DNA of 64,000 bases from an uncultured Bdellovibrionales bacterium (GTDB lineage: Bacteria > Patescibacteriota > Minisyncoccia > Moranbacterales > UBA1568), in contig CAYNMD010000001.1 of NCBI GenBank assembly GCA_964398485.1, positions 5,072 to 69,071 of the forward strand. Direction: 5' to 3'. The notes under the pieces are model-generated. The model did not search any database and was not told the DNA's origin. It saw only the letters and a list, made by a program, of their open reading frames with translations. Within the stretch, counting starts at the first letter, position 1, and the number at the start of each line of letters is the position of its first letter. A program made the translations under genes and the position numbers. Below, one piece after another: positions 16,142 through 43,976 of this stretch.

Positions 16142-18175
16142 ATGTCTTCTTTTGTTCTAAAGTCTTCGTGGCCACCAGCTGGGGATCAACCTCAAGCGAT
16201 CGCCTCTCTCATGCAGGGGCTCAATACAGGGCAACGTTTTCAGACACTTCTCGGAGTGACTGGATCAGGTAAGACATTTACCATGGCTAACTGTATAGCC
16301 AAGAGCCAGAAACCAGCCTTGGTCATTGCTCACAATAAAACCTTGGCAGCACAGCTTGCTCAAGAGTTTGAAGAATTTTTTCCTGATGCTGCGGTCCATT
16401 ACTTTGTTTCATACTATGATTTCTATCAGCCGGAGGCCTATGTACCAATTACGGATACCTACATAGAAAAAGATGCGTCGATCAATGAGGAGATTGATCG
16501 GTTGCGTCATGCCTCGACTCAGTCACTCCTTACGCGGCGTGATGTGATCATTGTCGCTTCAGTTTCTTGTATCTACGGTCTGGGGAGTCCTGAGGAGTAT
16601 CTCCGGGAAAATATGAAGCTAGCTGTCGGTGATTCAGTCACACGGCAGGACTTGATGCAGCGCCTCGTCTCTATTTTCTTCGAACGAACCAATGCTGATC
16701 TGACACCGGGCACCTTCCGTTCTATTGGCAATCGTCTAGAAATTATGCCGATCTCAGAAAAGATCCTGTACTCGATCGAGATCGGTGCCAATCGAATTGA
16801 GGCGATTACCAAAATTGATCCGGTTTCCCAAACTATTCTTGGCGAGGAGCAGTTCGTGTTCTTTTTTCCAGCCAAGCATTTTATTACAGACAAAGACAAA
16901 CAGGAGCGAGCGCTCGAAAATATCAGACTCGAACTCTCGGAACAGCTGAAGAAATTTGAACGTGAAGGAAAACTGCTGGAGGCAGAGCGGATCAAGCGAC
17001 GGACGCAGTATGATACTGCGATGATTGATGAGATTGGCTACTGTTCGGGAATCGAAAACTATTCTCGGCATCTTTCGGGGAAGGAGGCGGGTGAGCCGCC
17101 CGAAACACTTCTCTCCTATTTCCCTCATCTCCCAGATGGTACCCCAGATTTTCTCACGATTATCGATGAGTCTCATGTAACTTTGCCACAGCTTCGAGCG
17201 ATGTATAACGGTGACCAGGCGAGAAAGAAGACCTTGGTGGAATACGGATTCCGCCTGCCGAGCGCTTTGGACAATCGACCTCTTCGATACGAAGAGTTCC
17301 TCGAGCGAGTAGGGCCAGTGATGTTTACCTCGGCCACACCAGGTGAATATGAGCGTGAGGTGAGTGGCAATATTGTTGAACAGGTGATTCGCCCGACCGG
17401 ACTCATCGATCCAGAGCTCACTATTAAAGGAGTCAAGGCGACAGATGAATACCCTGGTCAAATCCAAGATTTTATTCACGAGGCTACACAAGAGATTGAG
17501 CGGGGTGGTCGCGTCATTGCCACGACACTGACCAAAAAGATGGCCGAAGACTTATCGCAGTACCTCAAGGATAAGGGAGTCAAGGCTGAATATCTTCATA
17601 GTGATGTGAAGACAATTGATCGAATCAAAATCCTCACCCAGTTTCGAAAAGGAGAATTTGACTGTCTGGTAGGGGTTAACCTCTTACGAGAGGGTCTTGA
17701 TCTTCCAGAGGTATCTTTCATTGGTGTCTTGGATGCTGACAAAGAGGGATTCCTCCGTTCAGAAACTTCTCTCATACAGATCATTGGACGAGCAGCGCGC
17801 AATGTTTTGGGAAGAGTGATCCTCTACGCTGATGTACTCACGGGATCAATCGATGCAGCGCTCAAGGAAACCAATCGTCGCCGAGAAAAACAGCTTGCCT
17901 ATAATAAGGAGCATGGTATTACGCCAAAGACGGTGCAGAAAAATATTCATGATATTACCGAGAGACTGCAGAGTGAACACGACAAAGCCGTGGCCATTTC
18001 ACTAGCGCTTGATGCCAAGGGTTTTGCCAAGAATCCCAATAAAATTATCAAAGCGAAAGAGCGAGAAATGAAGGCGGCTGTAAAGATTCTTGATTTTGAA
18101 ACAGCAGCAATTTTGCGCGATGAAATTCAGGCGCTTGAGGCCAAACTGGGTAAACGAAGAGAGAAAAAGTCATAG
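16142..18175 (+). CDS. uvrB: excinuclease ABC subunit B
   Basis: GVTGSGKTFTMAN Walker A, DESH box, beta-hairpin region, C-terminal UVR domain (ILRDEIQALE). Confidence 0.95.
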   Translation: MSSFVLKSSWPPAGDQPQAIASLMQGLNTGQRFQTLLGVTGSGKTFTMANCIAKSQKPALVIAHNKTLAAQLAQEFEEFFPDAAVHYFVSYYDFYQPEAYVPITDTYIEKDASINEEIDRLRHASTQSLLTRRDVIIVASVSCIYGLGSPEEYLRENMKLAVGDSVTRQDLMQRLVSIFFERTNADLTPGTFRSIGNRLEIMPISEKILYSIEIGANRIEAITKIDPVSQTILGEEQFVFFFPAKHFITDKDKQERALENIRLELSEQLKKFEREGKLLEAERIKRRTQYDTAMIDEIGYCSGIENYSRHLSGKEAGEPPETLLSYFPHLPDGTPDFLTIIDESHVTLPQLRAMYNGDQARKKTLVEYGFRLPSALDNRPLRYEEFLERVGPVMFTSATPGEYEREVSGNIVEQVIRPTGLIDPELTIKGVKATDEYPGQIQDFIHEATQEIERGGRVIATTLTKKMAEDLSQYLKDKGVKAEYLHSDVKTIDRIKILTQFRKGEFDCLVGVNLLREGLDLPEVSFIGVLDADKEGFLRSETSLIQIIGRAARNVLGRVILYADVLTGSIDAALKETNRRREKQLAYNKEHGITPKTVQKNIHDITERLQSEHDKAVAISLALDAKGFAKNPNKIIKAKEREMKAAVKILDFETAAILRDEIQALEAKLGKRREKKS

Positions 18176-18296
18176 AGGGATTTGCTGTGGTCAATTTTCT
18201 TGCAAAGCAGACCGAGAGTTTCTATACTAGAAAGGTATTTTTTCCTTTGGTCAAGAGAAAAATAATAACCAATAATTAAAATATATTTCAATTTAT

Positions 18297-20639: not shown

Positions 20640-20954
20640 ATGGCATCATCTTCACAGACAAAGCAAAGTTCTTTTCGTGAACGAGTATACGATATTGTCG
20701 CCCAGATCAGAAAAGGGAGCGTGCTTACGTATGGCGAAGTTGCAAAGCGGGCGGGAAGACCTGGAGCGGCCAGGGCAGTGGGTACGGCGATGAAAGAAAA
20801 TCCTTATCCAAAACGTGTACCGTGTCATCGGGTTGTCCGAGCTGATGGTAGTATTGGTGAATACGCCTTTGGTGGTCCCAAGGTTAAACTGAGGAAACTT
20901 CAATCCGAAGGGGTGCCTTTTTTGAATGCTGACCGAGTACAGATAGGTGTCTAA
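20640..20954 (+). CDS. MGMT-family protein (methylated-DNA-protein-cysteine methyltransferase, DNA-binding/active-site domain only)
   Basis: 104 aa; YGEVA...G...ARAVG.A...NP....VPCHRVV..DGS.GEY.FGG; active-site PCHRV retained; no N-terminal domain. Confidence 0.75.
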
Positions 20955-21004: not shown

Positions 21005-23593
21005 ATGACAGAGAAGAAAAAAGGTACTAGAAAAAGCATTGAACCAATAGATGAAATTATCGTCAAAGGGGCTCGGACGCATAATCTCAAAAATATTACC
21101 GTTTCGATGCCACGTAATAAGATGGTGGTGTTTACGGGACTTTCCGGATCAGGGAAGTCATCGCTTGCTTTTGACACCATTTTTGCTGAGGGACAAAGGC
21201 GGTATGTCGAAAGTCTTTCGGCCTACGCTCGGCAATTTCTCAACACCATGCAGAAGCCAGATGTGGATGAAATTGTGGGGCTTTCGCCAGCTATTTCTAT
21301 TGATCAGAAATCAGCGAGTCGGAATCCTCGTTCTACCGTAGCTACCGTAACGGAAATATATGACTATCTGCGAGTCCTCTATGCTCGGCTCGGGCGGCCA
21401 CATTGTCTCGAATGTGGACGGGAAATTAGCAAACTCTCGAGCGAGGAGATGCTTGAGGTGGTCAAAGAAAAAGTCCATGCACTGCTTAAGGATCCCAAGA
21501 AACAAGATCTGCCGGTAATGGTCCTGGCGCCGGTGGTGCGAGGGCGTAAAGGGGAGTACTATCAAATGCTGTACCATGCGCTTGGTCGTGGGTTTACCTC
21601 TATCTATCTTGATGGAGCAAGGAAGAGTCTCCGTGAACAGGTGGTCCTCAAGAAAAATTTCAAACACAATATTGATCTCGTGGTCGACGAATTTTTGGCT
21701 CGTGATTTTAAGCAGTATCAGGCTGATACCGAAGTACGTCTCTCGGAATCAGTTCAGCGAGCACTTGAAGAGGCAGAGAATATCGTCAAAATTCGAATTG
21801 GGGAAGAAGAGTTTCTTCTCTCAGCCAAGTTTACTTGTCCGTATGATGGGTTCTCCTATCCCGAAGTAGAACCGAGACTGTTTTCTTTCAATTCTCCGTA
21901 TGGAGCCTGTCAGGCTTGTAATGGTCTTGGGACCAAGCATTTTTTTGGCGATGAGCCCTGTGAAGTATGTAATGGGACTAGACTAAGGGAAGAGGCCCAA
22001 CACATTCTTGTAGGTGGCAAGAACGTTATTGATCTTACTCGACTGACGACAGAGGCAGCCTATGACTTTTTTATTGAGCTCGATCTTACTGAACGGGAAA
22101 AACAGATTGCGGCGGTGGTCCTCCGTGAGATCGAGAGTAGACTGCAGTTCCTCCTCAATGTTGGTCTCAATTATCTCACTCTTGATCGACGTGCTAATAC
22201 GCTGTCTGGTGGTGAGGCCCAGCGCATTCGTCTCGCGAGTCAGCTTGGGTCACAACTGGTAGGAGCACTCTATGTGCTGGATGAACCAACTATTGGTCTT
22301 CATCAAAGAGATAATCAGCGACTTATCAAGACTCTCGAGGCTCTCAGGGATCTTGGTAATACGATTATTGTTGTTGAACATGATGAGGATACTATTTTTG
22401 CTTCCGACTATATCGTAGATATTGGTCCTGGGGCAGGAGTGCATGGAGGTGAGGTGGTAGTGGCGGGAGATTTGGAGACACTCCTCACTGCGAAAAAAAA
22501 TACTTCTGGTTCGCTGACACTGGCGTATCTCCGTGGTGAAGAAAAAATTCCTGTACCAGAACGGCGTACGAAGGATAAGGGGACAATTCGGATCCGGGGT
22601 GGCCGAGTTTTCAATATCAAGAATCTGAGTGTTGATGTCCCCCTGGGCCGATTTATAACCGTAACGGGAGTATCAGGATCAGGAAAATCTTCTTTCTTAT
22701 ACGAAATTCTCCATAAGAATTTACAGGCACGTTTTGATCGACGGTATAAATCCAATCGAGTGGAAAATTGCGACAGCATCACTGGGACGGAATACCTCTC
22801 ACGAGTAGTGATGATTGATCAGAGTCCGATTGGTCGCACCCCACGGTCCAATCCTGCTACTTATACCGGTGCCTTTGGCCACATTCGTGACCTGTTTGCG
22901 GCCACCGAAGAGGCAAGGGTCCGCGGCTGGAAACCAGGACGATTTTCCTTTAACCGCCCAGGGGGACGCTGTGAAACGTGTGAGGGCAATGGTTTTATAG
23001 CGGTCGAGATGCACTTTCTTCCAACGGTATATGTGCCATGTGATGTGTGTGATGGGAAGCGTTTTACCAAAGAGACACTGGAGGTGACTTACAAGGACAA
23101 GAATATTCACCAGGTGCTTGCTATGACGATCGAGGAAGCGTATCAATTTTTCTATGATATTCCAGCGATTGCCGATCGACTCAAGACACTCAATGAAGTT
23201 GGTCTCGGGTACCTTGAACTTGGTCAATCAGCGACGACACTTTCGGGTGGTGAAGCACAACGAGTAAAGATTGCGAGCGAACTCTATCGCCAGTCAACAG
23301 AACGAACGATCTATCTTTTGGATGAACCTACTATTGGTCTTCACTACGCTGATGTTCGAAAGCTCATTGAGATTCTCGATCGGTTGGTAGTTAAGGGCAA
23401 TACAGTGATGGTGATTGAGCACAATATGGATCTTATTAAGAGTGCTGATTATATTATTGATATTGGTCCAGAAGGAGGAGTGGGGGGTGGAAAGCTTGTC
23501 GCGAGTGGCACGCCTGAGGAAGTTGCTAAAGCACCTGGTTCACATACAGGGGAATATCTCAAAAAAGTGTTACGAGCGAGCCAGTCGAAATAG
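21005..23593 (+). CDS. uvrA: excinuclease ABC subunit A
   Basis: Two ABC modules ([18 protein letters not shown]; LSGGEAQR x2), zinc-finger Cys clusters, UvrB-binding-like segment ([14 protein letters not shown]); the tool ORF starts at an upstream TTG (20957), ATG at 21005 preferred. Confidence 0.9.
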
Positions 23594-23658
23594 CTGTTGC
23601 CTTCCTTTATAGGGAGACAGCCATGATACTATAGGAAAGGAAATCCTTTCTAGAGGGT

Positions 23659-24393
23659 TTGGTTACCAGAAGCGATATGTATATAAAAGTGGAAAATTTC
23701 TGGTCTCTTCTACTTCGGCCGGGACGTGCAGTCTCTGTTCCTGACGGAACTCTTGAAGCACTAAAATGGCTAGCTTTGGCCTCCATGTTTTATGATCATG
23801 GTGTGCGCTTGCTTGGGGCAGGAGGAACAGTTGGTAATGCAACTTCTTTTGGAAGACTTGCTTTCCCGCTGTTTGCGTTTATTATTGCCTATAATTTGTC
23901 ACGAGCTGGATCTGGGCGAGCGGTGTATGAGAGAACGATAAAACGACTGATCTCTTTTGGGCTATTATCTTTGCCAGTCACGTACTATTTTTTTGGGGCA
24001 GAATTTTTGAACATTCTTTTTACCTTCGCCTTGGCCATAGGGATTGTTTGGTTGTTGGAGGGATGGCGCTCTTGGTGGAGAGTATTACTCGCAGCAGGAA
24101 TTCTTGGATTCAGTCCTTGGGTGGAATATGGTTTCCCTGGCGTACTCCTTATTCTTAGTTTTTTTGCTTGGCAACGTTTCGGATTACGTATCCCCGTGAT
24201 CTTTTTTTTGGTTGGGGCGTTTTCACTACTGAATATGGCTAATGGAAGCTTCTGGGCTCTTGCCGTGTTACCAATTATTTGGTTGGCTTCGGTGATAAGT
24301 CTAGATATTAAACGATCAAAGTGGCTTTTTTATGTTGTTTACCCTTTGCATCTGTGGATACTGATGGGAATTCATTGGTTTTTTGCACGGTAG
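23659..24393 (+). CDS. polytopic membrane protein, TraX-family-like
   Basis: LKWLALASMFYDHGV near the N-terminus resembles the TraX LK.IA..M..DH motif; about 7 TM. Confidence 0.4.
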   Translation: MVTRSDMYIKVENFWSLLLRPGRAVSVPDGTLEALKWLALASMFYDHGVRLLGAGGTVGNATSFGRLAFPLFAFIIAYNLSRAGSGRAVYERTIKRLISFGLLSLPVTYYFFGAEFLNILFTFALAIGIVWLLEGWRSWWRVLLAAGILGFSPWVEYGFPGVLLILSFFAWQRFGLRIPVIFFLVGAFSLLNMANGSFWALAVLPIIWLASVISLDIKRSKWLFYVVYPLHLWILMGIHWFFAR

Positions 24394-24421
24394 ACTCAAT
24401 ATAAATGTTTGACTTGAAGAT

Positions 24422-24925
24422 ATGAAAACTATTCTGGTTCGTGATCGTATGCAGCAAGGCTACAGCTATACTTGTACCGAACCAGTAGGGAAAAATTTTC
24501 GGGATGATTTCAAGCCAGATCTCACACCACAGGAGATGCTCGCTCTCGGGGTATTTGGCGGGAAATATATGACTGACTGTCAGAAAGAATTTCCCAAAGA
24601 ATGGTTTTCCAAAGCCAAACTCTCACCAGAAAAATCTGATCCAAAAATCAATTATTTTGGGGTCGCTGCCTCACAGCCACTCTCGGTGTGGCAGACCAAA
24701 GGCTGGATTTACCAGGATGATCCACGTGGCTGGTTTCAGTGGTACTGCCGTTACTATATGGGGAGGCGTTTACCAGAGGAGGATGATCGGCAAATCAAGC
24801 GCTGGCAGGCTATCAGGCGGCATGTAGCACAAATAGTTCACCATTGTCGCCGTGGTGACCTACACTGTCGTCCACGCCAACGTCAGGCATTACTTCACTG
24901 GGCGTATGACAGTCGAAATCTTTAA
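24422..24925 (+). CDS. hypothetical protein (Trp/Tyr-rich, Cys/His-rich C-terminus)
   Basis: 167-aa ORF with good coding character; no domain assigned with confidence. Confidence 0.4.
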   Translation: MKTILVRDRMQQGYSYTCTEPVGKNFRDDFKPDLTPQEMLALGVFGGKYMTDCQKEFPKEWFSKAKLSPEKSDPKINYFGVAASQPLSVWQTKGWIYQDDPRGWFQWYCRYYMGRRLPEEDDRQIKRWQAIRRHVAQIVHHCRRGDLHCRPRQRQALLHWAYDSRNL

Positions 24926-24936
24926 AAGACTCTAGA

Positions 24937-25224
24937 CTAGTTATTATGAAAGCCTGGTCTGCGACGATCAGCATCGTCCTCTTCCCTTTCTTCAGCTAGA
25001 AGAGCATCTCGTTCTCGCTCCGAATTGAGGATAGCTTGAATGATGCTTTCACGGTCGTATTCCCCATTTTGTAATACGTATCTTCCTGGCTTGAGAGGCA
25101 CCCTTACCCTTTCAGTGTATGCAGCCAAAAGCTCGTTGTCCGGAAGTTGTCTATAAGTATCTTCCGGAGTGGCATCAAAATTGAGTGAGAGCTGTTCGTG
25201 TCTGGGGAGTTGTTCTAGATTCAT
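24937..25224 (-). CDS. hypothetical acidic protein
   Basis: 95-aa ORF convergent with the previous gene; weak RBS. Confidence 0.25.
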   Translation of the reverse strand: MNLEQLPRHEQLSLNFDATPEDTYRQLPDNELLAAYTERVRVPLKPGRYVLQNGEYDRESIIQAILNSERERDALLAEEREEDDADRRRPGFHNN

Positions 25225-25313
25225 AAAGGTAATAAAAATCAGTACTTACACTCTGAGTATATCATTTGAAAAACGGATAAAAAAGAAGCCCTGAGTACTA
25301 ATTATTCTGGTGG

Positions 25314-25766: not shown

Positions 25767-25771
25767 AGGTA

Positions 25772-27568: not shown

Positions 27569-27644
27569 AGTGTTTGTTTCTTATCCTAGTATAGCATAAA
27601 ATAGCTGCTTGCCGAGATGATTCTCTGGTATACTGAGAGGGCTT

Positions 27645-31982: not shown

Positions 31983-32379
31983 TCGCTGGCGCGCCGCCGG
32001 CTACAACTGAAACTGCTCACCGCGGAACCCACGGTTGAGCCCAACCCACCCGAGCATCCAGAAAGGAGATGACTCGGGTGAATTATTTTTTAGAAAAATT
32101 TACAACAAAAAAACTGACCAAAAGCCAGTGATGATTTCTCTTATGCTGCTTGAAAAACCGAAAGCCCTCAATGCGGGAGGATGGGTCTGGATCCCCGTAA
32201 ATGAGCTTGTCGGAAAAATTCATTTTCCCGGTAAACCAGGTGGGTTCCAATTTTCGCCCTCCGTTCTGAAGGCTCTGGGGTCATTATAGCACGTTTTTAT
32301 TTCTGTCAATAGCCTGATCAAAAAATTTTGATAAATGAGGGGGCGCTCGATGCTATACTACAGTTACTCATGCTGCAAC

Positions 32380-33312: not shown

Positions 33313-33317
33313 TCACT

Positions 33318-34364: not shown

Positions 34365-34368
34365 AATT

Positions 34369-35571
34369 ATGCAAAGAATTTGGTGGATAATTGGAATTGT
34401 ATTGACCCTTGTCCTTTTTTGGATTGGTGCTCAATGGTTGGCGCTTTTTGAAGGGGGTTGGGCGCCTGGTGAAGTTCGTCAAATCTCGCCCCAGTCTCCA
34501 AATCCCGTTCCACTTTTAGAAAAACAAACGGCAGTAGAGCGGCGTTTGGTCATTGAGGCAGTAGCTACTGGATTGGATACCCCATGGAGTCTCGTTTTTA
34601 CGGATAGTGACCGTATATTGGTTGCAGAACGTCCCGGGCGGATTCGAGTGGTGAGCAAAGGAGAACTTAGAGAGAAGCCGCTCTATACTTTTGCTGAGGT
34701 TTCTGAAACTGGCGAAGAGGGGCTTATGTCCATGGTGCTTGATCCAAACTACAGAGAGAATCGATGGCTCTATGTAGCACTGGCGTATCCAGGAAGCACT
34801 GGGCTTTTGGTTCGAGTAATGCGCTTTACTGATAAGGGGGATTCTTTCATTGAGCCGAAGATTATTCTCGATCAGATTCCAGCCGCCAAGTACCATGCTG
34901 GATCGGCTATGATCTTTGGACCAGACGGGAAACTCTATATTACCACTGGTGATGCGACAGAAAAAAAATTAGCTCAAGATCTTGGATCGCTAGCAGGTAA
35001 AGTGCTTCGGATAAATGCTGATGGGAGTATCCCGAGTGATAATCCGTTCTCGGGGAGTCTTGTTTGGTCATACGGTCATCGGAATTCACAGGGGATCGCT
35101 TGGCATCCGTTGATGGAGAAATTTTATGCAAGTGAACACGGCCCGTCAGTATTTGACGGCCCAGCTGGTGGGGATGAGATCAACTTGATAGAAAGGGGTA
35201 AGAATTATGGTTGGCCGCTCGTTTCACATGAGAATTCATATGAAGGAACAGAAGCTCCCCTTATTAGCTTTACACCCGCGGAAGCCCCGGCATCCATGAT
35301 GGTTTATTCAGGAAGGGGGAATCAAAAATGGCAGGGAAATCTTTTCTTCGGAGCGCTTCGTGGAGAGGGGATAGTACGTATAGAGCTCGACCAATCTGAT
35401 CCGAAAAAAATTATTCGTGTCGAGAAATTATCAGAGGTGCGGTTCGGGCGGATTCGTGCAATAGTAGAAGCACCTGATGGTTCGATCTATTTCACTACCT
35501 CCAATCGTGATGGGCGCGGTAAGCCAGTACATGATGATGATAGAATAATGCGGATACGATTTGTGGAGTAA
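34369..35571 (+). CDS. PQQ-dependent glucose/sorbosone dehydrogenase family (soluble aldose sugar dehydrogenase-like beta-propeller)
   Basis: GLDTPWSLVFTDSDRILVAERPGRIRVV and repeated propeller blades; signal peptide. Confidence 0.8.
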   Translation: MQRIWWIIGIVLTLVLFWIGAQWLALFEGGWAPGEVRQISPQSPNPVPLLEKQTAVERRLVIEAVATGLDTPWSLVFTDSDRILVAERPGRIRVVSKGELREKPLYTFAEVSETGEEGLMSMVLDPNYRENRWLYVALAYPGSTGLLVRVMRFTDKGDSFIEPKIILDQIPAAKYHAGSAMIFGPDGKLYITTGDATEKKLAQDLGSLAGKVLRINADGSIPSDNPFSGSLVWSYGHRNSQGIAWHPLMEKFYASEHGPSVFDGPAGGDEINLIERGKNYGWPLVSHENSYEGTEAPLISFTPAEAPASMMVYSGRGNQKWQGNLFFGALRGEGIVRIELDQSDPKKIIRVEKLSEVRFGRIRAIVEAPDGSIYFTTSNRDGRGKPVHDDDRIMRIRFVE

Positions 35572-35590
35572 TTTTTTGAAGAACACAACA

Positions 35591-35956
35591 ATGAATGTCA
35601 AAGAACTTTTTAAGGTTGCCTCACTACCAGTAATACTTGCTTCACTTTGTTGTCTCTCACCCCTCATCCTGGTCATGTTGGGACTTTCTACGGTCGGGTT
35701 TGCTGCCTCACTTGCAGACTCGTTTTATGGTGAATACAAATGGTATTTTCGATTGGTAGGACTCCTGGCTCTTGCGGGGGCGTATTTTGTCTATTTACGC
35801 AAACAAGGGGTGTGTACTCTCGATCAGGCCCGACGTGAACGCAACAAAATCATTAATCAATTTCTCCTCCTCGTTATCACGGGCATTGTTGGGTATCTTT
35901 TCTTTCTTTATGTGGTGGTTCATTATGTGGGGGTGTGGTTCAAAATTTGGGAGTAA
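35591..35956 (+). CDS. hypothetical membrane protein
   Basis: Hydrophobic segments, CC pair; no domain. Confidence 0.35.
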   Translation: MNVKELFKVASLPVILASLCCLSPLILVMLGLSTVGFAASLADSFYGEYKWYFRLVGLLALAGAYFVYLRKQGVCTLDQARRERNKIINQFLLLVITGIVGYLFFLYVVVHYVGVWFKIWE

Positions 35957-36025
35957 ATAACTAATTCTCTTGACAGATGAGTTAAAAATTGATAGTCTTC
36001 GTATTCAATCATTATCCTATCATTC

Positions 36026-37216
36026 ATGAATTTTCATACGCTTGGTATTCCACCGAGCCTTCTCAATATCCTTGATCAGTTCAAGCTTACTGAACCAACC
36101 CCGATTCAGGCTCAGGCTATTCCGGTTGCTCTTCAGGGCAAGGACGTGATGGGTATCGCCCAGACGGGGACAGGAAAGACACTGGCTTTTGGTGTCCCCC
36201 TTCTTGCTCAAGTTTTGGCTGATCGAACCAAACAAGGCCTGGTGCTGCTCCCGACCCGTGAGCTTGCGCTACAGGTTCATGAATCGCTCATGCGTTTTGG
36301 AAAACCACTTGGTTTCCGTGCCGCCGTTCTTATTGGTGGAGATAATATGGAGAAACAGAAGCGCCAACTGCGGGCCAATCCCCATATTCTCATTGCAACC
36401 CCAGGTCGTCTCAATGACCATCTGATGCAAAAGACGGTTTCACTCGATCGAGTAAAAATTCTTGTTCTCGATGAAGCTGACCATATGCTCGATATGGGGT
36501 TTGCACCGCAGATTGCTCAGATAGTGAAACATGTACCACGAGAGCGACAGACCATGCTTTTTTCGGCTACGATGCCCCAAGAGGTTATCGCACTGGCCAC
36601 TTCATATATGAAGCTTCCGCTTCGAGTAGAGGTGTCGCCGCCCGGGAAAACGGCTGATAAGATTGCTCAGGAAATTTTCTTTGTGCCTCACATGGAGAAG
36701 TTGGAACTCTTGGTAAAGCTCTTGAATGAAAATGTGGGGAGTACACTCGTCTTTACTCGGACCAAGTATATTGCTAAGCGGATAGCACTTTCTCTTCGTA
36801 ACAAAGGATTTACCTCGGCTGAGATTCACTCTAATCGCTCGCTCTCGCAGCGGCGCGAAGCTCTTGATGGTTTTAAGACTGGACGTTATCGCGTTTTGGT
36901 GGCAACCGATATCGCTGCGCGAGGAATTGATGTTTCCGGTATTGCTCTAGTTATTAATTATGACCTTCCAGAAAAGCCAGAAGACTATGTTCATCGTATC
37001 GGTCGTACCGCGAGAGCTGGTCGTGAAGGGAAGGCTATTTCACTCGCTACTCCTGATCAGCGCGGTCATGTGAAATCAATTGAGCGTCTGATTAGCATGT
37101 CACTCCCTGTTAGTGGAGGACATGATTTGGTGGCTGGTATGAGTGATGCAGCTGCTATTCGTCGTCCACGATCCAGTCGTCCTCGTGGCTCTCGTCATTT
37201 TGGTCGCCGGCGATAG
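36026..37216 (+). CDS. DEAD-box ATP-dependent RNA helicase
   Basis: Q-motif, AQTGTGKT, PTRELA, DEAD, SAT, HRIGRTARAG motifs. Confidence 0.9.
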   Translation: MNFHTLGIPPSLLNILDQFKLTEPTPIQAQAIPVALQGKDVMGIAQTGTGKTLAFGVPLLAQVLADRTKQGLVLLPTRELALQVHESLMRFGKPLGFRAAVLIGGDNMEKQKRQLRANPHILIATPGRLNDHLMQKTVSLDRVKILVLDEADHMLDMGFAPQIAQIVKHVPRERQTMLFSATMPQEVIALATSYMKLPLRVEVSPPGKTADKIAQEIFFVPHMEKLELLVKLLNENVGSTLVFTRTKYIAKRIALSLRNKGFTSAEIHSNRSLSQRREALDGFKTGRYRVLVATDIAARGIDVSGIALVINYDLPEKPEDYVHRIGRTARAGREGKAISLATPDQRGHVKSIERLISMSLPVSGGHDLVAGMSDAAAIRRPRSSRPRGSRHFGRRR

Positions 37217-37239
37217 AGTGATCGCTTGGTGTAAGGTGT

Positions 37240-38022
37240 ATGTGGAAATATTTCTTTGGAACTCTTTTTTTGGTGGGGTTTTTGGGAGCCTGGTTTTGGT
37301 TTGATCAAAAAAGTGACCATGTTCAACCGACGACTTTTGAAAACACCTATTCTCGTACTACGCCGGAAGAGACTTCGAAAAATGTAGAACCGATACCAGT
37401 GTCCCCCGTAGAGCCTCCGAAGCCAATCATCCAAGACATTGCGTATCCCGTTCCCTTTACCTCACAGGCTCCGACTGGGGAATGGAATTTGAGTGCGTTC
37501 CAAGACGGCTGCGAAGAAGCGTCGACCCTTATGGTGTGGATGGCCCGAGAGAAGAAAACGCTGACATCGGTAGAAGTAAAGGCCGAGCTCTTGGATATGG
37601 CTTCATTTCAGACGAAGATCATTGGCCATGGTGTGGATACAGATGTGAGTGATACCAATGCGTATCTCTTGAAGGAGTATTTTGGAATTACAGACGGAGA
37701 GGTGGTGTATGACTTCATGCTCGATGAGCTCAAAGAAGCAGTGATGAAGGGCATAGTAATCGTTCCTACTAATGGTCGGGCTTTACATAATCCCAATTTT
37801 ACGGCGCCCGGACCACTCCAGCACATGCTCGTCATCACGGGTTATGATGTGACAACCAAAGAATTTATTACCAATGATCCGGGAACAAGAAAAGGGGACG
37901 GATACCGATATCCAGAGCAAGTTTTGTTTGATGCTATTCGTGAATATCCAACTGGAAAGCACCTCCCTATCACCACCGAACGTAAAGCAATGATACTGAT
38001 TCCGTTCACAACGAAGGATTGA
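37240..38022 (+). CDS. secreted/anchored papain-like cysteine peptidase domain protein (Peptidase_C39_2-like)
   Basis: N-terminal TM; VPFTSQ...WNLSAFQDGCEEASTLMVW (Cys) and later HMLVITGYD (His) fit the C39-like fold. Confidence 0.45.
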   Translation: MWKYFFGTLFLVGFLGAWFWFDQKSDHVQPTTFENTYSRTTPEETSKNVEPIPVSPVEPPKPIIQDIAYPVPFTSQAPTGEWNLSAFQDGCEEASTLMVWMAREKKTLTSVEVKAELLDMASFQTKIIGHGVDTDVSDTNAYLLKEYFGITDGEVVYDFMLDELKEAVMKGIVIVPTNGRALHNPNFTAPGPLQHMLVITGYDVTTKEFITNDPGTRKGDGYRYPEQVLFDAIREYPTGKHLPITTERKAMILIPFTTKD

Positions 38023-38084
38023 TTTTTTGAGTATTTATGGTAGGGTAAGCCTATCGTTTTCCTGCTTACCATTGGAGGTTTCAC

Positions 38085-38447
38085 ATGGCTACTGAACGGA
38101 AGACTTTGTTTTTTGCTGAACCGATTACGACGGAAGCAGCTGAACGAATTGGTTCCTATCTTGCAGAGCGTCAGATCGCCTGCAACTGGCGTGAAGGTGT
38201 TGAAGATACCGAGGGAAAACCTCATCAAGGCTGGGACGGGCTTGATCTCAGGACAATGCGACTCATCCGGTCGATGCAGCGACAGGACACCCGAGTCCTT
38301 GTCGGTTACTGGGAACATGAGGATTCGGGTGGGGCCAGGCTGAAGTCAGCGAATTTCATCGTGATTACGGCACCTGGTCTCAAACTGCGTCGCTCAGCCA
38401 AATACAAGCAGGCTGCTGGGCAGATTCCGAAGCGAACCACTACCTGA
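38085..38447 (+). CDS. hypothetical protein
   Basis: 120-aa ORF; no domain. Confidence 0.35.
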   Translation: MATERKTLFFAEPITTEAAERIGSYLAERQIACNWREGVEDTEGKPHQGWDGLDLRTMRLIRSMQRQDTRVLVGYWEHEDSGGARLKSANFIVITAPGLKLRRSAKYKQAAGQIPKRTTT

Positions 38448-38518
38448 ATCTATGCCGGCCCTTAGGAAACCCTCGGGCCGGCACGATCATTTTTTGAGGA
38501 GTATATAATAGAAAGACT

Positions 38519-39262
38519 ATGGCAATAGTTCGATCGAGAAATATTTTTGACCCAGCGAGCGAGACAGCGTTTAAGTTGTCACGCTCCAAACTGGAACTCT
38601 TCCTCGAGTGTCCGCGGTGTTTTTATATTGATCGCAGGCTGGGCATTGGTCGGCCGACAGGGCCACCGTTTAATCTCAATAAAGCTGTGGATACACTCCT
38701 CAAGAAGGAATTTGATATTCATCGATCAGCGGGGACGCAGCATCCTCTCTTAGAAAAGTATGACGTTGATGTGCGGCCAGTGTCTCATGAAGAGCTCGAT
38801 ATTTGGCGGGAGAATTTTCAGGGTGTGCAATATCACCACCAGCCAACACATTTAATCATTACCGGTGCAATCGATGACCTCTGGATCAATTCTCGTGAGG
38901 AATATATCGTCGTAGATTACAAAGCAACCAGTAAGGATGAAGTAATTGATAAGCTCAATGATACTTGGCACCATCAGTATCGTCGTCAGATGGAAATCTA
39001 TCAGTGGCTCCTCCGAGCAAATGGCTATCGTGTTTCGCCAACTGGGTATTTTGTCTACTGTAATGCAGGCACAGATAAAACGGCTTTTGATGGGAAACTT
39101 GAATTCGATGTTCGTCTTATTGCTTATGAAGGGAATGATGATTGGGTGGAAGGGGTTATTTATCGAGCCAAAGAGTGTCTGATGGGAAGTGCTTTGCCTC
39201 AAGCCTCGCCTAATTGTGACTACTGTACTTTTGCTGAAGCGAGGGCAAGAGTTGAAAGGTGA
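38519..39262 (+). CDS. PD-(D/E)XK nuclease, Cas4/RecB-like with Cys cluster (standalone)
   Basis: IDDLW...EEYIVVDYK (D...E.K core), QxxxY-type C-terminus, Cys residues CPRC near the N-terminus and C...CDYC at the C-terminus as in Cas4 Fe-S nucleases. Confidence 0.6.
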   Translation: MAIVRSRNIFDPASETAFKLSRSKLELFLECPRCFYIDRRLGIGRPTGPPFNLNKAVDTLLKKEFDIHRSAGTQHPLLEKYDVDVRPVSHEELDIWRENFQGVQYHHQPTHLIITGAIDDLWINSREEYIVVDYKATSKDEVIDKLNDTWHHQYRRQMEIYQWLLRANGYRVSPTGYFVYCNAGTDKTAFDGKLEFDVRLIAYEGNDDWVEGVIYRAKECLMGSALPQASPNCDYCTFAEARARVER

Positions 39263-39330
39263 TAAAAAAAGCGCCGCGAGCCTGTTGGCTCTTGGTGCTT
39301 GAGGTGGTCTGAATGATGGTTTCCAACAGA

Positions 39331-39711
39331 TCAGATAAGTGCTGGTTGTTTCTGCTTCAGGCTTTTTCGTCTAGGACGTTGGGTAGGTGGAGTAGTTGCT
39401 TTTAGCAGCTGAGCGAGTGCGGGGGTTATCGGCCAACCGGAGCTGTTGTTAACTGAATCTATCTGGAGGTGTTCTCTGGCTGCTTCCAGCAGAAGGCCAG
39501 GCTTCACACTTGGATGTTGCCGGAGTCTACCACATTCTGCTTTCACTGTACGGAAGTTCGTACTCAAGCTTCCATCGTAATTTGCGATCAGTATTGAAAT
39601 TGCTCCGCCTAAAGCAAAACCTTTTCGGCGTTCCAGGATAGTTTTCTGCTGGAACAAAATGAGGGCTTGCAGTGCGATCACACGAACAGCATTAGCGCTG
39701 AGATGGGCCAT
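39331..39711 (-). CDS. hypothetical protein
   Basis: 126 aa; perfect SD AGGAGGT 6 nt upstream of the ATG; no family recognised. Confidence 0.5.
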   Translation of the reverse strand: MAHLSANAVRVIALQALILFQQKTILERRKGFALGGAISILIANYDGSLSTNFRTVKAECGRLRQHPSVKPGLLLEAAREHLQIDSVNNSSGWPITPALAQLLKATTPPTQRPRRKSLKQKQPALI

Positions 39712-39797
39712 TGCCTACCTCCTGTAGTTTGGAAATTTACTGATTGATATTATATACACTTTACATTTATTAGTCAAGATGTTAGAATGGAGCGCGT

Positions 39798-41069: not shown

Positions 41070-41132
41070 AGTACGGACTGCCTTGAGTAGGTCTTTACCT
41101 CACGTGGGAAACCTGGTACACTGGAAAACAAC

Positions 41133-43976
41133 TTGTCTTTTTTCTTAGCGCTTCCAGTCCTGCTTATGCCTACGAGTCACGGCAAAAAGAATGTCATTGA
41201 AATTCGGGGAGCTCGGGTCAATAATCTCAAAAATATCGATATCGATATCCCGCGTGATGCCTTTGTCGTCGTGACGGGACTGTCGGGATCAGGGAAATCA
41301 TCACTCGCTTTTGATACGTTGTATGCGGAGGCAAACCGACGTTACGTCGAGAGTCTCTCTTCGTATGCTCGGAATTTTATGGAGGGATACGACAAACCCG
41401 ATGTCGATTCCATCAAGAATCTCTCCCCAGCCATTTCGATCGATCAAAAAAGTGTATCGAGGAGCCCACGATCAACAGTGGGTACTATGACTGAGGTGTA
41501 TGATTACCTCCGGATTCTCTTTGCTAAAGTCGGAACCCCGTGTTGCCCAAGTTGTCACCAGATTTTGTCACGCACCTCGCCGTTAGTTATCTTGGAGCGC
41601 CTGCTTCTTTTGCCAGCAGAGTCCAATGTAGCGGTGCTGGCCGAAAACAAGCAGTGTGAAGGAAAGACACTTGGTGATATGCTCGATCTTATTTCTGATT
41701 GGGGATACGTACGAGTGTTGTGGAAGGATGAGATGTTTCTTATTAGTGAATTGAGATTGCGAGCAAATCTCAGTGAACGAGGTCCTATTGCTATTGTGGT
41801 TGATCGCTTTAATCTTGATCCAGCTCGGCCTGATAAGGAGCGCATACTGGATTCTCTTCACTCAGCTTTTCATAGCGGCGAAGGGATTTTGAAAATCCGA
41901 GTAGACGGGGAATATTGGCATACCTTTTATGAAAAGTTTCGTTGCGAAAAATGTCAGATAGAATTGCCAGAATTTACCCCGGCTCATTTTTCTTTTAATA
42001 ATCCAGAAGGCGCCTGTGGGCATTGTGGTGGCCTCGGGGTGACACTTAAGTTTGATCCGAAGCTAGTGATCCCCAACGAAAATCTTTCATTGGCCGAAGG
42101 TGCTATACGTCCCTGGAGTAAAATGAATGGCGGTCGTGGAGGCAATCATGGCCCCTATCTTATTTTGGAAGCAGTAGCTAAGCGTGAGAAGATTCCGCTC
42201 AATGTTCCAATCAAAAAACTATCAGCCAAGCAGAAACAGTTTCTACTCTATGGTGAAACAAATACCACAAAGGATGGGGTATTTACTGGAGTTATTGGGA
42301 TGCTGGAAGAAAAGTATCAAGATACCAAATCTGATCACTTACGAGGAGAAATTGAGACTTATATGTACACGGAGACTTGTCCTGATTGTCGAGGGAAACG
42401 TCTCAAACCGGCATCGTTATCAGTCTTGGTAGCTGATCAATCGATAGACCAGATTGTTGATCAAAGTGTGGAACTCCTTCTTGAGTGTTTTGATAAGCTC
42501 AAAACAAAATTGTTGACTGATGGTCACCCTCAGAATTTGGTGGATACTTTATTTCAGGAAATGGATACAAGGCTCTCGGCGGTTGATAAAGTTGGTCTGG
42601 GGTACCTGACTCTTTCTCGAGGAGCGGATACTCTTTCGGGTGGCGAGGCTCAACGAATTCGACTTTCGGTACAAATCAAGTCAGGACTTTCCGGTATCAT
42701 CTATGTTTTGGATGAGCCATCAGTAGGTCTTCATAGTCGAGATACAGATCGTCTCATTAGGGCTCTCGATGAACTTCGAGGTGCTGATAACTCGCTGGTG
42801 GTTGTTGAGCATGATGTAGCTATTATGCGTAAGGCTGACTGGATTATTGATCTAGGTCCCGGTGCTGGTAAGGAGGGTGGCGAAATAATTTTTTCTGGCC
42901 CCCCAGAGAAGCTTTTCAAATCAAAAATTCTTACCGGCGAGTACCTTTGTGGGAAGCGTTCGGTTGTTGAGCCTGCCAAACCTCGTAGTGGTAATGGAAA
43001 CAATCTTGTTATAGTAGGGGCTACTGAACATAATTTGCAGGGGGTAACAGTAGAAATTCCTCTAGCAAAATTTATTGCTGTAGCTGGTGTCTCTGGTTCT
43101 GGGAAATCAACCTTGGTCCATGATATTCTGGCTCGCGCTCTGGCAAAGCGCTTTTATCAAGCTAAAACTCCCCCGGGTGCCCATCAAGAGATTTGTGGTC
43201 TAGAACATATAGATAAGGTGATTACGGTGAATCAGGATCCGATTGGTCGTACCCCCAGATCGAATGCTGCTACGTACACAGGAGTATTCGGCCATATTCG
43301 TGAGGTGTTTGCTGATACGCCAGAGGCCAAAAAAGAACGTTATACTGCGAGTTCCTTTAGTTTTAATATGCGAGGTGGACGATGTGAGATCTGTCAGGGA
43401 GGAGGATTGAAGAAGATTGAGATGTATCTTTTGCCTGATGTCTATATTCCTTGTGAGGCATGCAGCGGAACGCGCTATAACCAAAAAACTCTCTCACTAC
43501 AGTATCGAGGAAAAAATATTGCAGAAGTTTTGAGCATGACCGTAACCGAGGCAAGGGGATTCTTTCTCGACCAACCAATGATTGAGGAAAAACTCAGAGT
43601 GCTTGAGGAGGTTGGATTAGGTTATTTGGTGCTGGGACAGAGTGCCCCAAATCTTTCTGGTGGCGAGGCTCAACGTATCAAGCTCGCTACTGAACTTGCT
43701 CGAAAATCAACTGGCAATACACTGTATATCCTTGATGAGCCTACGATCGGTCTTCACTTTGAAGATGTGCGGAGATTGCTTGAGGTCTTGAATGCATTGG
43801 TTGATCGAGGCAATACAGTCTTGGTTGTGGAGCATAATATAGATGTTATTCGAGCGGCTGACTGGGTGATTGAGATGGGTCCAGATGGCGGGTCGCGTGG
43901 TGGACAAGTCTTGTTCTCTGGTACGCCAGATAAATTGAAGAAAATAAAAAATAGCCCTACCGCCAAGTATCTCTAA
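41133..43976 (+). CDS. UvrA paralog (second full-length excinuclease ABC subunit A-like protein)
   Basis: Two ABC modules, zinc-finger cysteines, long insertion domain; divergent from the uvrA at 21005. Confidence 0.85.

Follow-up and report, generated by a model that had tools for sequence, protein, structure and literature searches.

UvrA without an insertion domain, UvrC without (HhH)2 and a second, complete UvrA in what is probably one rearranged repair cluster of Candidatus Moranbacteria

Which parts of the UvrABC machinery are really needed for nucleotide excision repair (NER), and why should one genome carry two different UvrA proteins? A 64,000-nucleotide stretch of DNA (here termed 'the window') from Candidatus Moranbacteria (Parcubacteria, CPR) offers a natural test of the first question and raises the second. 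An earlier note on this DNA described two full-length UvrA paralogues, a short UvrC and a 'second UvrC-UvrA locus', and interpreted the second UvrA as a possible alternative NER sensor paired with the short UvrC. The genes concerned are listed below.

16142..18175, + strand: uvrB, canonical, 677 aa, with helicase core, UvrA-interaction domain 2 and C-terminal UVR domain
20640..20954, + strand: O6-alkylguanine-DNA alkyltransferase, minimal and single-domain, 104 aa, matching PF01035 only
21005..23593, + strand: uvrA-1 (ΔID, lacking the insertion domain), 862 aa, no PF17755 match
23594..39797, strand not assigned: unrelated genes, about 16 kb, lying between the separated parts of the cluster in this genome
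39798..41069, + strand: uvrC-short, 423 aa, with Pfam GIY-YIG, UVR and UvrC_RNaseH_dom
41166..43976, + strand: uvrA-2 (complete), 936 aa, with PF17760 and PF17755 matches
43985..44902, + strand: protein of the '306-aa class' (305 aa here), resembling a Polβ-type nucleotidyltransferase

The domain content, conservation, synteny and phylogeny of these genes can be read off directly, and the reading that we consider probable is that the window holds one rearranged NER cluster, in which a streamlined core and a complete, retained UvrA share the same UvrB and UvrC. No description of such a trimmed UvrABC variant (a ΔID UvrA, an HhH-less UvrC and a second UvrA) was found in the searchable literature.

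Layout of the repair genes

All four NER genes are real, as the earlier note had it. The uvrB gene, which it placed at 16142, scores 954 bits against an NCBIfam UvrB equivalog cut-off of 743 and carries Pfam matches to UvrB_inter, Helicase_C, UvrB and UVR, while both UvrA proteins exceed the UvrA equivalog cut-off of 1147 (1249.7 for UvrA-1 and 1192.4 for UvrA-2). The uvrA-2 reading frame opens at a TTG at 41133, and gene callers start it at the ATG at 41166. A single uvrB and a single uvrC were found, with no second uvrC anywhere in the 64-kb window.

The description of a 'second locus', however, proved misleading. The order uvrB-uvrA1-uvrC-uvrA2 is contiguous in related loci (L005, L006 and L090), and because the four genes adjoin in these relatives, the 'two loci' seen here are best understood as the split halves of one ancestral cluster. 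The distance from uvrA-1 to uvrC is 0.5-1.4 kb in relatives L005, L006, L016 and L019; in the window the intervening stretch holds traX-like, spoIID-like, rluA-type, transporter, hydrolase and GSDH genes, together with a DEAD-box helicase, a C39-like peptidase and a PD-(D/E)XK nuclease. A genome scan covering more than 591 relatives was reduced to 80 Patescibacteria species loci, with neighbours counted within ±10 kb of uvrA and only where the flank sufficed (63 or 43 loci). The usual Patescibacteria arrangement is uvrB-uvrA(ΔID)-uvrC with no second uvrA nearby: uvrB lies upstream of the ΔID uvrA in 51/63 loci and uvrC downstream in 53/63, and a second uvrA is found in only 2/43, both of them Moranbacteria.

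The neighbours outside the core are tied to it by position only. The alkyltransferase (PF01035, E = 6.5e-31; motif 'VPCHRVV', with the active-site PCHR kept) ends 50 nt upstream of uvrA-1, and occupies the equivalent position in 11/80 related loci, all Moranbacteria-like. A 306-aa-class gene lies directly downstream of uvrA-2 in 26/27 orthologous loci, including those where uvrC is absent, and is followed by type IV pilus genes, so that the order of uvrA-2, 306-aa gene and pilC is kept in 26/27 and 17/19 loci, with gaps down to 9-16 nt. The protein has an invariant GS...SDWD motif and weak profile matches (MNT antitoxin, E = 0.0033; Pfam Polbeta/NTP_transf_2; range E = 0.003-0.2), and its place in the repair system is suggested by its location only.

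Two UvrA proteins and a short UvrC

Contrary to the earlier note, the two UvrA proteins are not both full length. UvrA-2 aligns end to end, in a single alignment, with B. stearothermophilus UvrA (2r6f). UvrA-1 aligns in two blocks (query 15-311 to 21-303, and 312-859 to 417-959) and has no Pfam match to UvrA_DNA-bind (PF17755); the DNA-binding insertion domain (ID) of about 113 residues, equivalent to E. coli UvrA ~291-401, is therefore absent. In its place, between the two knuckles of Zn module 1 (the second of which reads CxxD, not CxxC), stands the linker TKHFFGDEP. Both ABC ATPase modules and Zn modules 2 and 3 are retained, and an AlphaFold model of UvrA-1 resembles class I UvrA (TM 0.75 to 3uwx). 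The UvrB-binding domain (PF17760) is kept in both copies, as had been claimed (E = 1e-18 in UvrA-1, 1e-11 in UvrA-2), with the residue equivalent to E. coli R216 invariant in each.

A reduced length is the sole pointer to UvrA-1 being a decaying pseudogene, a mis-assembly or a gene-calling artefact, and that explanation, to which we give practically no credence, is refuted on several grounds. The reading frame and all ATPase motifs are intact, the identical protein is present on independent assemblies, and the ID is missing in 120/120 of the best homologue clusters, at 77-100% identity. Across 80 species identity is 67-88%, the deletion and its linker, fixed at nine residues and conserved in sequence, recur in 78 of about 80 (79-80) Patescibacteria species loci, and UvrA-1 is the slowest-evolving gene in the cluster.

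UvrA-2 retains the ID, Zn modules 1, 2 and 3 and all ATPase motifs. The best 120 homologue clusters (915-952 aa, 64-97% identity) contain both the UvrB-binding domain and the ID in 120/120. For 118 of these 120 sequences (length filter 920-960 aa), purifying selection was found on the UvrB-binding domain, the ID, the ATPase motifs and Zn2/Zn3, which makes an NER role plausible. The domain set excludes assignment to class II (UvrA2/DrrC-type), the possibility that the earlier note had tied to absence of the UvrB-binding domain. That domain is nonetheless the least conserved part of UvrA-2 (0.52), and lacks the 'RKGE' stretch of E. coli UvrA and UvrA-1. Many pairs of UvrA-1 and UvrA-2 homologues sit on contigs of the same length.

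In a distance-based tree, the ΔID clade has bootstrap support of 99-100, and UvrA-2, a divergent, long-branch copy that evolves faster than UvrA-1, joins the ID+ UvrAs of Wildermuth- and Yanofskybacteria type with support of 100. Grouping of UvrA-1 with UvrA-2 receives 0, and a common Parcubacteria node for both lineages 7%; UvrA-2 belongs to a separate, old UvrA lineage. In the Wildermuth/Yanofsky-type loci the ID+ protein is the only UvrA beside uvrC (itself HhH-less), with no ΔID gene within ±10 kb.

The 423-aa UvrC was described accurately. GIY-YIG, UVR (UvrB-binding) and four-Cys motifs are all present, as is an RNase H-like domain whose D/D/H triad is intact, so that both predicted nuclease centres are kept, and Pfam and structure alignment find no C-terminal, DNA-binding (HhH)2 domain. 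The match to UvrC C-terminal structures (that of T. maritima among them) stops 5 residues before the stop codon, and the 96 nt between that codon and the uvrA-2 start leave no room for a separate HhH reading frame. Its best 120 homologue clusters are all short (401-456 aa, save one 306-aa sequence) with 0 HhH Pfam matches, and every UvrC scored in the genome scan ends 6-21 residues past the nuclease motif. Both ΔID UvrA and HhH-less UvrC are lineage-wide in Patescibacteria. The short UvrC scores 277.8 bits, under the TIGR00194 cut-off of 285.45; NCBI records for such proteins are often labelled 'hypothetical' or 'GIY-YIG nuclease family'.

Possible roles of the second UvrA

The activities of UvrA-1, UvrA-2 and UvrC, their division of labour and the composition of the UvrA dimers can be proposed from sequence. 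A ΔID UvrA dimer would sense distorted DNA through its ATPase and signature-II/Zn3-hairpin core and load UvrB, which would recruit the short UvrC via a UVR-UVR contact; the latter would make the 3' cut with GIY-YIG and the 5' cut with the DDH site, in the absence of HhH docking. Damage sensing and incision would probably be less specific or efficient than in E. coli, a cost that a genome of about 1 Mb may be able to bear. In E. coli, UvrA Δ290-400 remains competent for incision and for Mfd-dependent repair, but is poor at discriminating damage on long DNA (PMC3025350); D. radiodurans UvrC-Δ(HhH)2 keeps dual incision, only the 5' cut being partly impaired, and has a Kd of 40 nM vs 28 nM (PMC10085695). 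Cryo-EM of the ATP-bound, damage-testing state shows a mobile or poorly resolved ID (PMC12796330). The ID has also been given an 'essential role in DNA coordination', with coupling to the UvrB-binding domain (PMC11985968), and on that account a homodimer of ΔID proteins may sense damage poorly when acting alone. UvrA-2 most likely serves as an additional damage sensor upstream of the same UvrB and UvrC, and would supply the ID-dependent clamping and discrimination that UvrA-1 lacks. Against this proposal stand the divergence of its UvrB-binding domain and its linkage, which is tightest to the nucleotidyltransferase-like and pilus genes rather than to uvrB and uvrC.

A rather unlikely alternative, suggested by the many tandem-fused UvrAs in which one half has the ID and the other does not, is that the two proteins form an asymmetric heterodimer with a single ID, a two-gene counterpart of such fusions, as the working damage sensor of Moranbacteria. 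Among the best 150 representatives, 37 fusions are [UBD+ID+]/[UBD+ID-], 5 have the reverse order and 1 is ID-/ID-; both Walker A motifs survive in 42/42 of their ID-less halves and both signature motifs in 40/42. The co-conservation of uvrA-1 and uvrA-2 across Moranbacteria, within one cluster, fits such a partnership, as does the faster evolution of UvrA-2, a pattern one might expect if it were the specialised partner. However, an ID+ gene is missing within 10 kb of most Patescibacteria ΔID loci, and the Wildermuth/Yanofsky type shows the ID+ form with no ΔID gene nearby, so that either form seems capable of functioning by itself; one related locus (L089) has uvrA-2 away from uvrA-1; and the fusions' ΔID halves have no phylogenetic relationship to UvrA-1, the ID therefore having been lost independently.

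Less probable still is a role for UvrA-2 outside canonical NER, with the co-transcribed 306-aa protein and possibly the type IV pilus/DNA-uptake genes (for example, in surveillance or processing of incoming DNA, or in protection from DNA-binding toxins in the manner of class II UvrAs). Its long branch, its weakly conserved UvrB-binding domain and the persistence of the uvrA-2/306-aa/pilC order where uvrC and uvrA-1 are not adjacent would all agree with this, and the extra paralogues DrUvrA2, Ecm16 and DrrC do act outside UvrBC-dependent repair (PMC9328131). Yet UvrA-2, unlike class II proteins, keeps the UvrB-binding domain with its R216 contact, Zn module 1, the ID and the ATPase motifs; uvrC is directly upstream in 16/16 orthologous loci with flank; its closest relatives are the sole UvrA beside uvrC in the Wildermuth/Yanofsky-type loci (±10 kb); and the nucleotidyltransferase assignment is weak. 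That same adjacency to uvrC, and the full class I architecture of UvrA-2, are what speak for the model of the earlier note, in which two NER loci run in parallel and UvrA-2 is dedicated to the short UvrC, independent of uvrB-uvrA. This model, largely refuted by synteny, we regard as very improbable: UvrB and UvrC are each encoded once in the window, a ΔID UvrA is the partner of the short UvrC in dozens of species that show no further uvrA in the vicinity, the 306-aa gene and pilC, rather than uvrC, are the neighbours most constantly found beside UvrA-2, and it is UvrB, not UvrA, that recruits UvrC (PMC7835731). Of the original interpretation, the exclusion of class II and the plausible NER role survive, and the exclusive pairing does not.

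Comparison with known systems

Class I references include the UvrAs of E. coli, B. stearothermophilus (2R6F/3UWX), T. maritima (3PIH) and M. tuberculosis (3ZQJ). Both window proteins share with them two ABC ATPase modules, the UvrB-binding domain with its R216 contact and Zn modules 2/3, at 48-55% identity to E. coli UvrA. UvrA-2 matches the full domain set, but with a divergent UvrB-binding domain, whereas UvrA-1 lacks the entire ID, a domain treated in the literature as a UvrA hallmark (PMC3167621), and has the short linker and CxxD knuckle instead. Class II UvrAs (D. radiodurans UvrA2, DrrC and Ecm16) are likewise second paralogues in their genomes with an ABC ATPase core and, as in UvrA-2, an ID; they have, however, dispensed with the UvrB-binding domain and Zn module 1 and operate independently of UvrB/UvrC. 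UvrA-1 shows the converse loss.

The tandem double-UvrA fusions (NCBIfam PRK00635-type, ~1800 aa; Planctomycetota, Fibrobacterales and others) in many cases combine the same ID+ and ID- unit types as the Moranbacteria pair, both with UvrB-binding domains, but in a single polypeptide rather than in two genes with uvrC between them. ID deletions have reportedly also been engineered, in E. coli UvrA (Δ290-400; Manelyte 2010, Wagner 2011) and in Bst UvrA (ΔID; Pakotiprapha 2008). Their boundaries are nearly those of the natural deletion, and the UvrB-binding domain and ATPase modules are kept; but these proteins were made in the laboratory and discriminate damage less well, whereas UvrA-1 is natural, occurs in hundreds of Patescibacteria species and is strongly conserved, and is therefore presumably adapted to work without an ID.

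Like canonical UvrC, the short protein combines a GIY-YIG 3' nuclease, the four-Cys and UVR motifs and an RNase H-like 5' nuclease with a DDH triad. Its truncation point is that of the engineered UvrC-Δ(HhH)2 proteins, said to include E. coli UvrC554 and a D. radiodurans construct (Seck 2023), except that here the truncation is natural and lineage-wide. Cho is also a shortened nuclease of this family with GIY-YIG and a Cys-rich motif, but in the E. coli type the RNase H-like 5' nuclease half is missing (the NF007833 alignment covers residues 18-214 only); since that half and its catalytic triad are retained in the window protein, the short UvrC is not a Cho, but a UvrC minus its HhH.

A UvrA without its insertion domain

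UvrABC is a textbook repair machine, and early deletion studies found the insertion domain (ID) of UvrA to be dispensable or stabilising; the role of that domain is still debated, and the need for the UvrC (HhH)2 domain in 5' incision is only partly settled. In this Moranbacterial window the four Uvr reading frames named by an earlier note are present and unambiguous (NCBIfam, Pfam), and are listed here with the alkyltransferase-type frame that precedes the first uvrA:

16142-18175 (+): uvrB, 677 aa; NF003673 UvrB equivalog, 954 bits (cut-off 743)
20640-20954 (+): alkyltransferase ORF, 104 aa, PF01035; 50 nt upstream of uvrA-1
21005-23593 (+): uvrA-1 (uvrA-ΔID), 862 aa; NCBIfam UvrA, 1249.7 bits (cut-off 1147)
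39798-41069 (+): short uvrC, 423 aa; GIY-YIG, UVR and RNase H-like domains
41166-43976 (+): uvrA-2 (uvrA-full), 936 aa; NCBIfam UvrA, 1192.4 bits (cut-off 1147)

The uvrB product has the helicase core, domain 2 and C-terminal UVR motif expected of a UvrB (PF17757, PF12344, PF02151). UvrA-1, the product of the uvrB-linked gene, has complete ATPase modules in a motif scan (Walker A, signature, Walker B and H-loop, with DEPT twice and VEHD/IEHN). As the earlier note had held, the UvrB-binding domain (UBD, PF17760) is retained in both UvrA proteins, with the E. coli contact residue R216 kept; in UvrA-1 (E = 1.2e-18) 129 residues align in the region of E. coli residues 131-248, and R216 is invariant. 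The same note's description of two full-length UvrAs fails for UvrA-1. Between the two knuckles of Zn module 2, where a class I UvrA carries its ID, PF17755 finds no match, only three residues align with the E. coli 292-400 region in the profile alignment, and the alignment to B. stearothermophilus UvrA breaks into two blocks that skip ~113 residues. The gap relative to E. coli UvrA spans approximately residues 291-401, and its site is occupied by a 9-residue linker. The Zn2 and Zn3 CxxC pairs are present and Zn1 reads as CxxC plus CxxD (CPYD), an assignment from sequence only; the AlphaFold model has low pLDDT in its Zn regions, and as a whole (pLDDT 71.6) superposes on class I UvrA (TM 0.75 to 3uwx).

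Among the best 120 clusters of UvrA-1 homologues (77-100% identity) the proteins are ~820-910 aa long and lack PF17755, and the named members are Candidatus Moranbacteria/Moraniibacteriota. UvrA-1 is the slowest-evolving gene of the Uvr set, and proteins identical to those of the window also occur on a 146-kb metagenome contig (ENA ERZ27283041). UvrA-1, UvrA-2 and the short UvrC are neither artefacts nor products of gene decay. A more distant stand-alone ID-less UvrA (P0471, 59% identity to UvrA-1) likewise adjoins uvrB; that uvrB (L008:7798-9627) encodes only 609 aa with no UVR-domain match recorded, and may be devoid of the C-terminal UvrC-binding motif.

The 104-aa frame upstream of uvrA-1 corresponds to the C-terminal DNA-binding/active-site domain of O6-alkylguanine alkyltransferase only, with no N-terminal domain, and the same pairing with uvrA-ΔID is repeated in 11 Moranbacteria-like loci. 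The hallmark of ATL proteins is replacement of the PCHR active-site cysteine (PWHR or PAHR). Here the cysteine is kept (VPCHRVV), so the frame encodes a minimal alkyltransferase, and its candidacy as an ATL factor coupled to nucleotide excision repair (NER) was rejected.

A short UvrC and the spread of the cluster

The short UvrC was correctly described by the earlier note as GIY-YIG (PF01541, E = 1.2e-5; alignable to 1yd6 and 1ycz), UVR (PF02151, E = 7.9e-5) and RNase H-like (PF08459, E = 1.6e-28) domains without (HhH)2: its stop codon lies 5 residues past the last RNase H-aligned residue, at a point where the T. maritima structure runs on into (HhH)2. The triad D (YDAAH), D (VVVDG) and H (EAHRF) matches the T. 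maritima catalytic positions in the alignment, and four cysteines (C171, C188, C196 and C200; C-x16-C-x7-C-x3-C) form a putative cluster motif. Among the best 120 clusters of relatives, all proteins are 401-456 aa except one of 306 aa, and none (0 of 120) has an HhH Pfam match; every UvrC scored in related loci is likewise HhH-less. Identification of the protein as Cho was rejected, as the RNase H-like domain is present and its NF007833 score is 65 bits (cut-off 367). The gap between uvrC and uvrA-2 is only 96 nt, which leaves no separate HhH gene between them; supply of the domain in trans was ruled out both for the 305-aa ORF after uvrA-2, which is nucleotidyltransferase-like, and for small minus-strand ORFs upstream of uvrC, which are unconserved (12-23% identity).

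With TIGR00194 the short UvrC scores 277.8 bits, below the NCBI UvrC cut-off of 285.45, and the NCBI names of its orthologues (P0252, P0263, P0264, P0269, P0289, P0334, P0360) vary between 'hypothetical protein' (often), 'UvrB/UvrC motif-containing protein' and 'GIY-YIG nuclease family protein'. Given such scores and names, automated surveys would report these genomes as having no uvrC, which amounts to an annotation gap.

A scan for short UvrAs, using one genome per species, returned more than 591 relatives, and the best 80 (67-88% identity) were scored, with gene content taken from ±10 kb around each locus. These belong to Moraniibacteriota, Paceibacterota/Parcubacteria, Taylor-, Zambryski-, Nomura- and Lloydbacteria, and Minisyncoccia. 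In 78 loci (of 79 that could be scored and 80 in all) a 9-residue linker with the consensus T-[KR]-[HY]-F-F-G-x-[ED]-x stands in place of the ID. Where enough flank was available, uvrB lies upstream of uvrA-ΔID in 51/63 loci and uvrC downstream in 53/63, and every UvrC scored ends 6-21 residues past its last nuclease motif. By these counts, uvrB-uvrA(ΔID)-uvrC(ΔHhH) is the usual cluster in much of the Patescibacteria. A second, ID-bearing uvrA was found in 2 of the 43 loci with at least 6 kb downstream, both from Moranbacteria.

In three related loci (L005 and L006, with 78-79% UvrA-1 identity, and L090) the order is uvrB, (ydjC/ogt-like), uvrA-ΔID, short uvrC, uvrA-full, the ~306-aa gene and pilC. 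The separate second UvrC-UvrA locus proposed by the earlier note is thus, in these relatives, part of one four-gene cluster; in the window uvrA-1 and uvrC are parted by ~16 kb of unrelated genes (17.6 kb from uvrA-1 to uvrA-2), and in a complete genome (CP064975.1) five genes lie between uvrC and uvrA-2. The window contains no mfd, photolyase, uvrD or second uvrC; an Rfam scan returned tRNAs only, with no regulatory RNA near the Uvr genes, and a promoter/terminator scan of 15.3-24.5 kb gave the same counts as shuffled sequences.

Several further features of the window and of the database records were observed along the way. A PD-(D/E)XK (Cas4/RecB-like, PF12705) nuclease gene at 38519-39262 (+) lies just upstream of uvrC, and homologues (57-67% identity) recur near the uvrA-uvrC cluster, no more than 10 kb away, in loci of three other Patescibacteria species (L039, L045 and L079); CPR genomes are known for an excess of solo Cas4-like genes (PMC5704561). 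The window has an unusually large number of other genes for DNA metabolism (topA, dprA, an AlkD-like gene, two Xth-like exo/endonucleases and mgsA/rarA; positions 104-3522 (-), 5862-6650 (-), 12377-13114 (+) and 56318-58350 (+)), and also encodes an EVE-domain protein (4034-4522), four tRNAs within 0.7 kb (7823-8536, +) and a fifth on the opposite strand (14824-14897, -), ~1.2 kb upstream of uvrB. TPA MAG records that hold the Parcubacteria-type cluster are often titled 'uncultured Bdellovibrionales' or 'uncultured Candidatus Saccharibacteria' (L010, L011, L017, L020, L021, L026 and many of L034-L088), and 'Undibacterium sp.' is the name of one protein cluster; with 70-88% identity to Moranbacteria/Paceibacteria proteins, all of these labels look like automated mis-assignments.

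UvrA-2, its neighbours and the tandem fusions

UvrA-2 is complete, as the earlier note stated. Its ATPase motifs are intact in the motif scan, UBD (PF17760, E = 1e-11) and ID (PF17755, E = 3.5e-22) are both matched, so that its architecture is that of class I, and it aligns end to end with 2r6f in one continuous block (residues 23-952). Its homologues in the best 120 clusters (915-952 aa, 64-97% identity) all have both domains, and many homologue pairs lie on equally long contigs, from which UvrA-1 and UvrA-2 are taken to be co-resident in relatives.

The two proteins share a core identity of 0.51, and each is ~0.60 identical to one set of ID-bearing UvrAs, identified by exact look-up as Candidatus Wildermuthbacteria and Yanofskybacteria. 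For the phylogeny called for by the earlier note, 40 taxa and 670 core columns were used to build a distance tree with 100 bootstrap replicates. This tree recovers a ΔID clade with 99-100% support and joins UvrA-2 to the Wildermuth/Yanofsky-type proteins in all replicates (100%); no replicate unites the two window copies, and the deeper branches have low support. Recent duplication was therefore rejected (51% core identity, bootstrap 0 for a joint grouping), and UvrA-2 is better described as a fast-evolving Moranbacterial member of a separate ID-bearing lineage of Parcubacteria. At Wildermuth/Yanofsky-type metagenome loci (L114-L165, for example L116, L133 and L153) the ID-bearing UvrA adjoins an oppositely oriented UvrC in 21/28, and HhH is absent from all 17 scorable UvrCs (tails of 9-19 residues). 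HhH-less UvrCs beside ID-bearing UvrAs indicate that HhH loss is broader in Parcubacteria than ID loss.

Downstream of uvrA-2 lie the following genes:

43985-44902 (+): 306-aa gene (305 aa in the window), 9 nt downstream of uvrA-2
45003-46226 (+): pilC/T2SSF, directly downstream of the 306-aa gene; first of the type IV pilus set (45003-51415)
48275-49696 (+): PilX_N-like, type IV pilus set
49777-50871 (+): pilM, type IV pilus set
~50855-51415 (+): pilN-like, type IV pilus set

Of 27 orthologous loci, 26 have the 306-aa gene after uvrA-2, with a gap of 9-16 nt in the tightest (orthologues of the gene include L004:18744-19667, L005:17453-18376, L006:17794-18705, L089:12815-13741 and L090:12856-13776), and pilC is a neighbour in 17/19. 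These two are the most constant neighbours of uvrA-2, and the order uvrA-2, 306-aa gene, pilus genes is kept in all Moranbacteria loci inspected, including those with uvrC elsewhere (L089). The 306-aa protein matches no Pfam family above threshold; its N-terminal region of ~100 residues is followed by a part that weakly resembles Polβ-type nucleotidyltransferases (MNT antitoxin) and in which the motif GS...SDWD is invariant.

An exhaustive search of representative proteins with UvrA-1 returned mostly tandem double-UvrA fusions, which dominate that ranking because their bit scores are summed, so that stand-alone ΔID proteins cannot be counted from it. Among UvrA relatives such fusions (~1600-1960 aa) abound; those with names come from Planctomycetota and Fibrobacterales. 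When 265 UvrA units were dissected by profile, 152 had UBD and ID, 57 UBD without ID and 55 ID without UBD, and the fusions were of the types [ID+]/[ID-] (37), [ID-]/[ID+] (5), [ID-]/[ID-] (1) and [ID+]/[ID+] (37). About a third of those examined combine a complete unit with an ID-less one, with UBD and ATPase motifs in both (P0362, P0363, P0378, P0380 and P0382, ID+/ID-; P0391 and P0422, ID-/ID+; P0407 is ID-/ID-). In the ID-less halves both Walker A motifs (42/42) and both signature motifs (40/42) are preserved, and these halves are nearly always partnered by an ID-bearing unit. A shared origin with UvrA-1 was rejected by the unit tree; as these halves are unrelated to it, the ID has been lost several times.

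Proposed roles for two UvrAs and comparison with known systems

Both deletions have been made by nature and are stable across a large bacterial radiation, and Moranbacteria hold an ID-less and a complete UvrA side by side with one UvrB and one UvrC. The arrangement probably represents a streamlined NER core alongside a retained, complete UvrA-2. A ΔID UvrA dimer would sense damage through its ATPase/signature-II core and then load UvrB, which would recruit the short UvrC to cut on both sides; the resulting NER would be of lower specificity, affordable for a genome of ~1 Mb. Moranbacteria would also have kept the complete UvrA for ID-dependent clamping, with UvrB and UvrC in common.

The main rival, which we regard as unlikely, is an obligate UvrA-1/UvrA-2 heterodimer, in which two genes would do what the ID+/ID- fusions do in one; against it speak lineages that seemingly have only one UvrA form near uvrB or uvrC (±10 kb). 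It is similarly doubtful that Moranbacteria possess a two-gene asymmetric sensor, with ΔID UvrA-1 and ID-bearing UvrA-2 as protomers of a heterodimer that has a single DNA clamp; the covalent ID+/ID- fusions of Planctomycetota, Fibrobacterales and others seem to be an independent arrival at the same asymmetric arrangement. If true, damage recognition in bacterial NER can be, and repeatedly became, intrinsically asymmetric, one protomer clamping and reading the DNA while the other mainly loads UvrB. The constant downstream neighbours of uvrA-2 would accord with a role outside NER, together with the nucleotidyltransferase-like gene and the pilus cluster, but the retained UBD and constant adjacency to uvrC make this improbable. 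The two parallel NER systems of the earlier note are very improbable: they clash with the synteny and with there being only one uvrB and one uvrC in the window. The four small genes offer a directly testable system for the contribution of the ID in vivo, the asymmetric UvrA dimer and 5' incision without HhH.

Accessible published schemes define class I by UBD and ID and class II by absence of the UBD, and count the ID among the hallmarks of UvrA (PMC3167621, PMC9328131); an architecture with UBD and without ID was not found in that scheme. The searchable literature, the fullest UvrA/Cho class schemes aside, yielded no description of a natural UBD+/ID- UvrA; searches of it likewise returned none of an HhH-less UvrC as a CPR trait or of the asymmetry of ID+/ID- fusions. 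Class II proteins (UvrA2/DrrC/Ecm16) lack both UBD and Zn module 1, whereas both window UvrAs have a UBD and match DrUvrA2 (2vf7) and Ecm16 (7sh1) much more weakly than class I structures; the class II identity that the earlier note had allowed for UvrA-2, should its UBD be missing, therefore falls away. In the PRK00635-type double UvrA, two units form one polypeptide, whereas the window UvrAs are separate genes (862 and 936 aa), parted by uvrC in relatives, that score 646 and 608 bits against the NF001885 cut-off of 3054.

Engineered proteins provide a parallel. With short damaged duplexes, E. coli UvrA Δ290-400 gives normal incision; on plasmid DNA its damage discrimination is poor, and it stays comparatively proficient in Mfd-dependent repair (PMC3025350). 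D. radiodurans UvrC-Δ(HhH)2 retains near-normal DNA binding and makes both incisions, with a partial defect confined to the 5' cut (PMC10085695). By cryo-EM the ID is mobile in the ATP-bound, damage-testing state (PMC12796330), while another cryo-EM study, from 2025, gives the ID an essential part in coordinating DNA and in the coupling to UvrB binding, and stresses its interplay with the UBD (PMC11985968). The natural losses of ID and HhH mirror these engineered deletions, which leave working proteins, and it is on them and on the mobility of the ID that the proposed ΔID/short-UvrC pathway is based.
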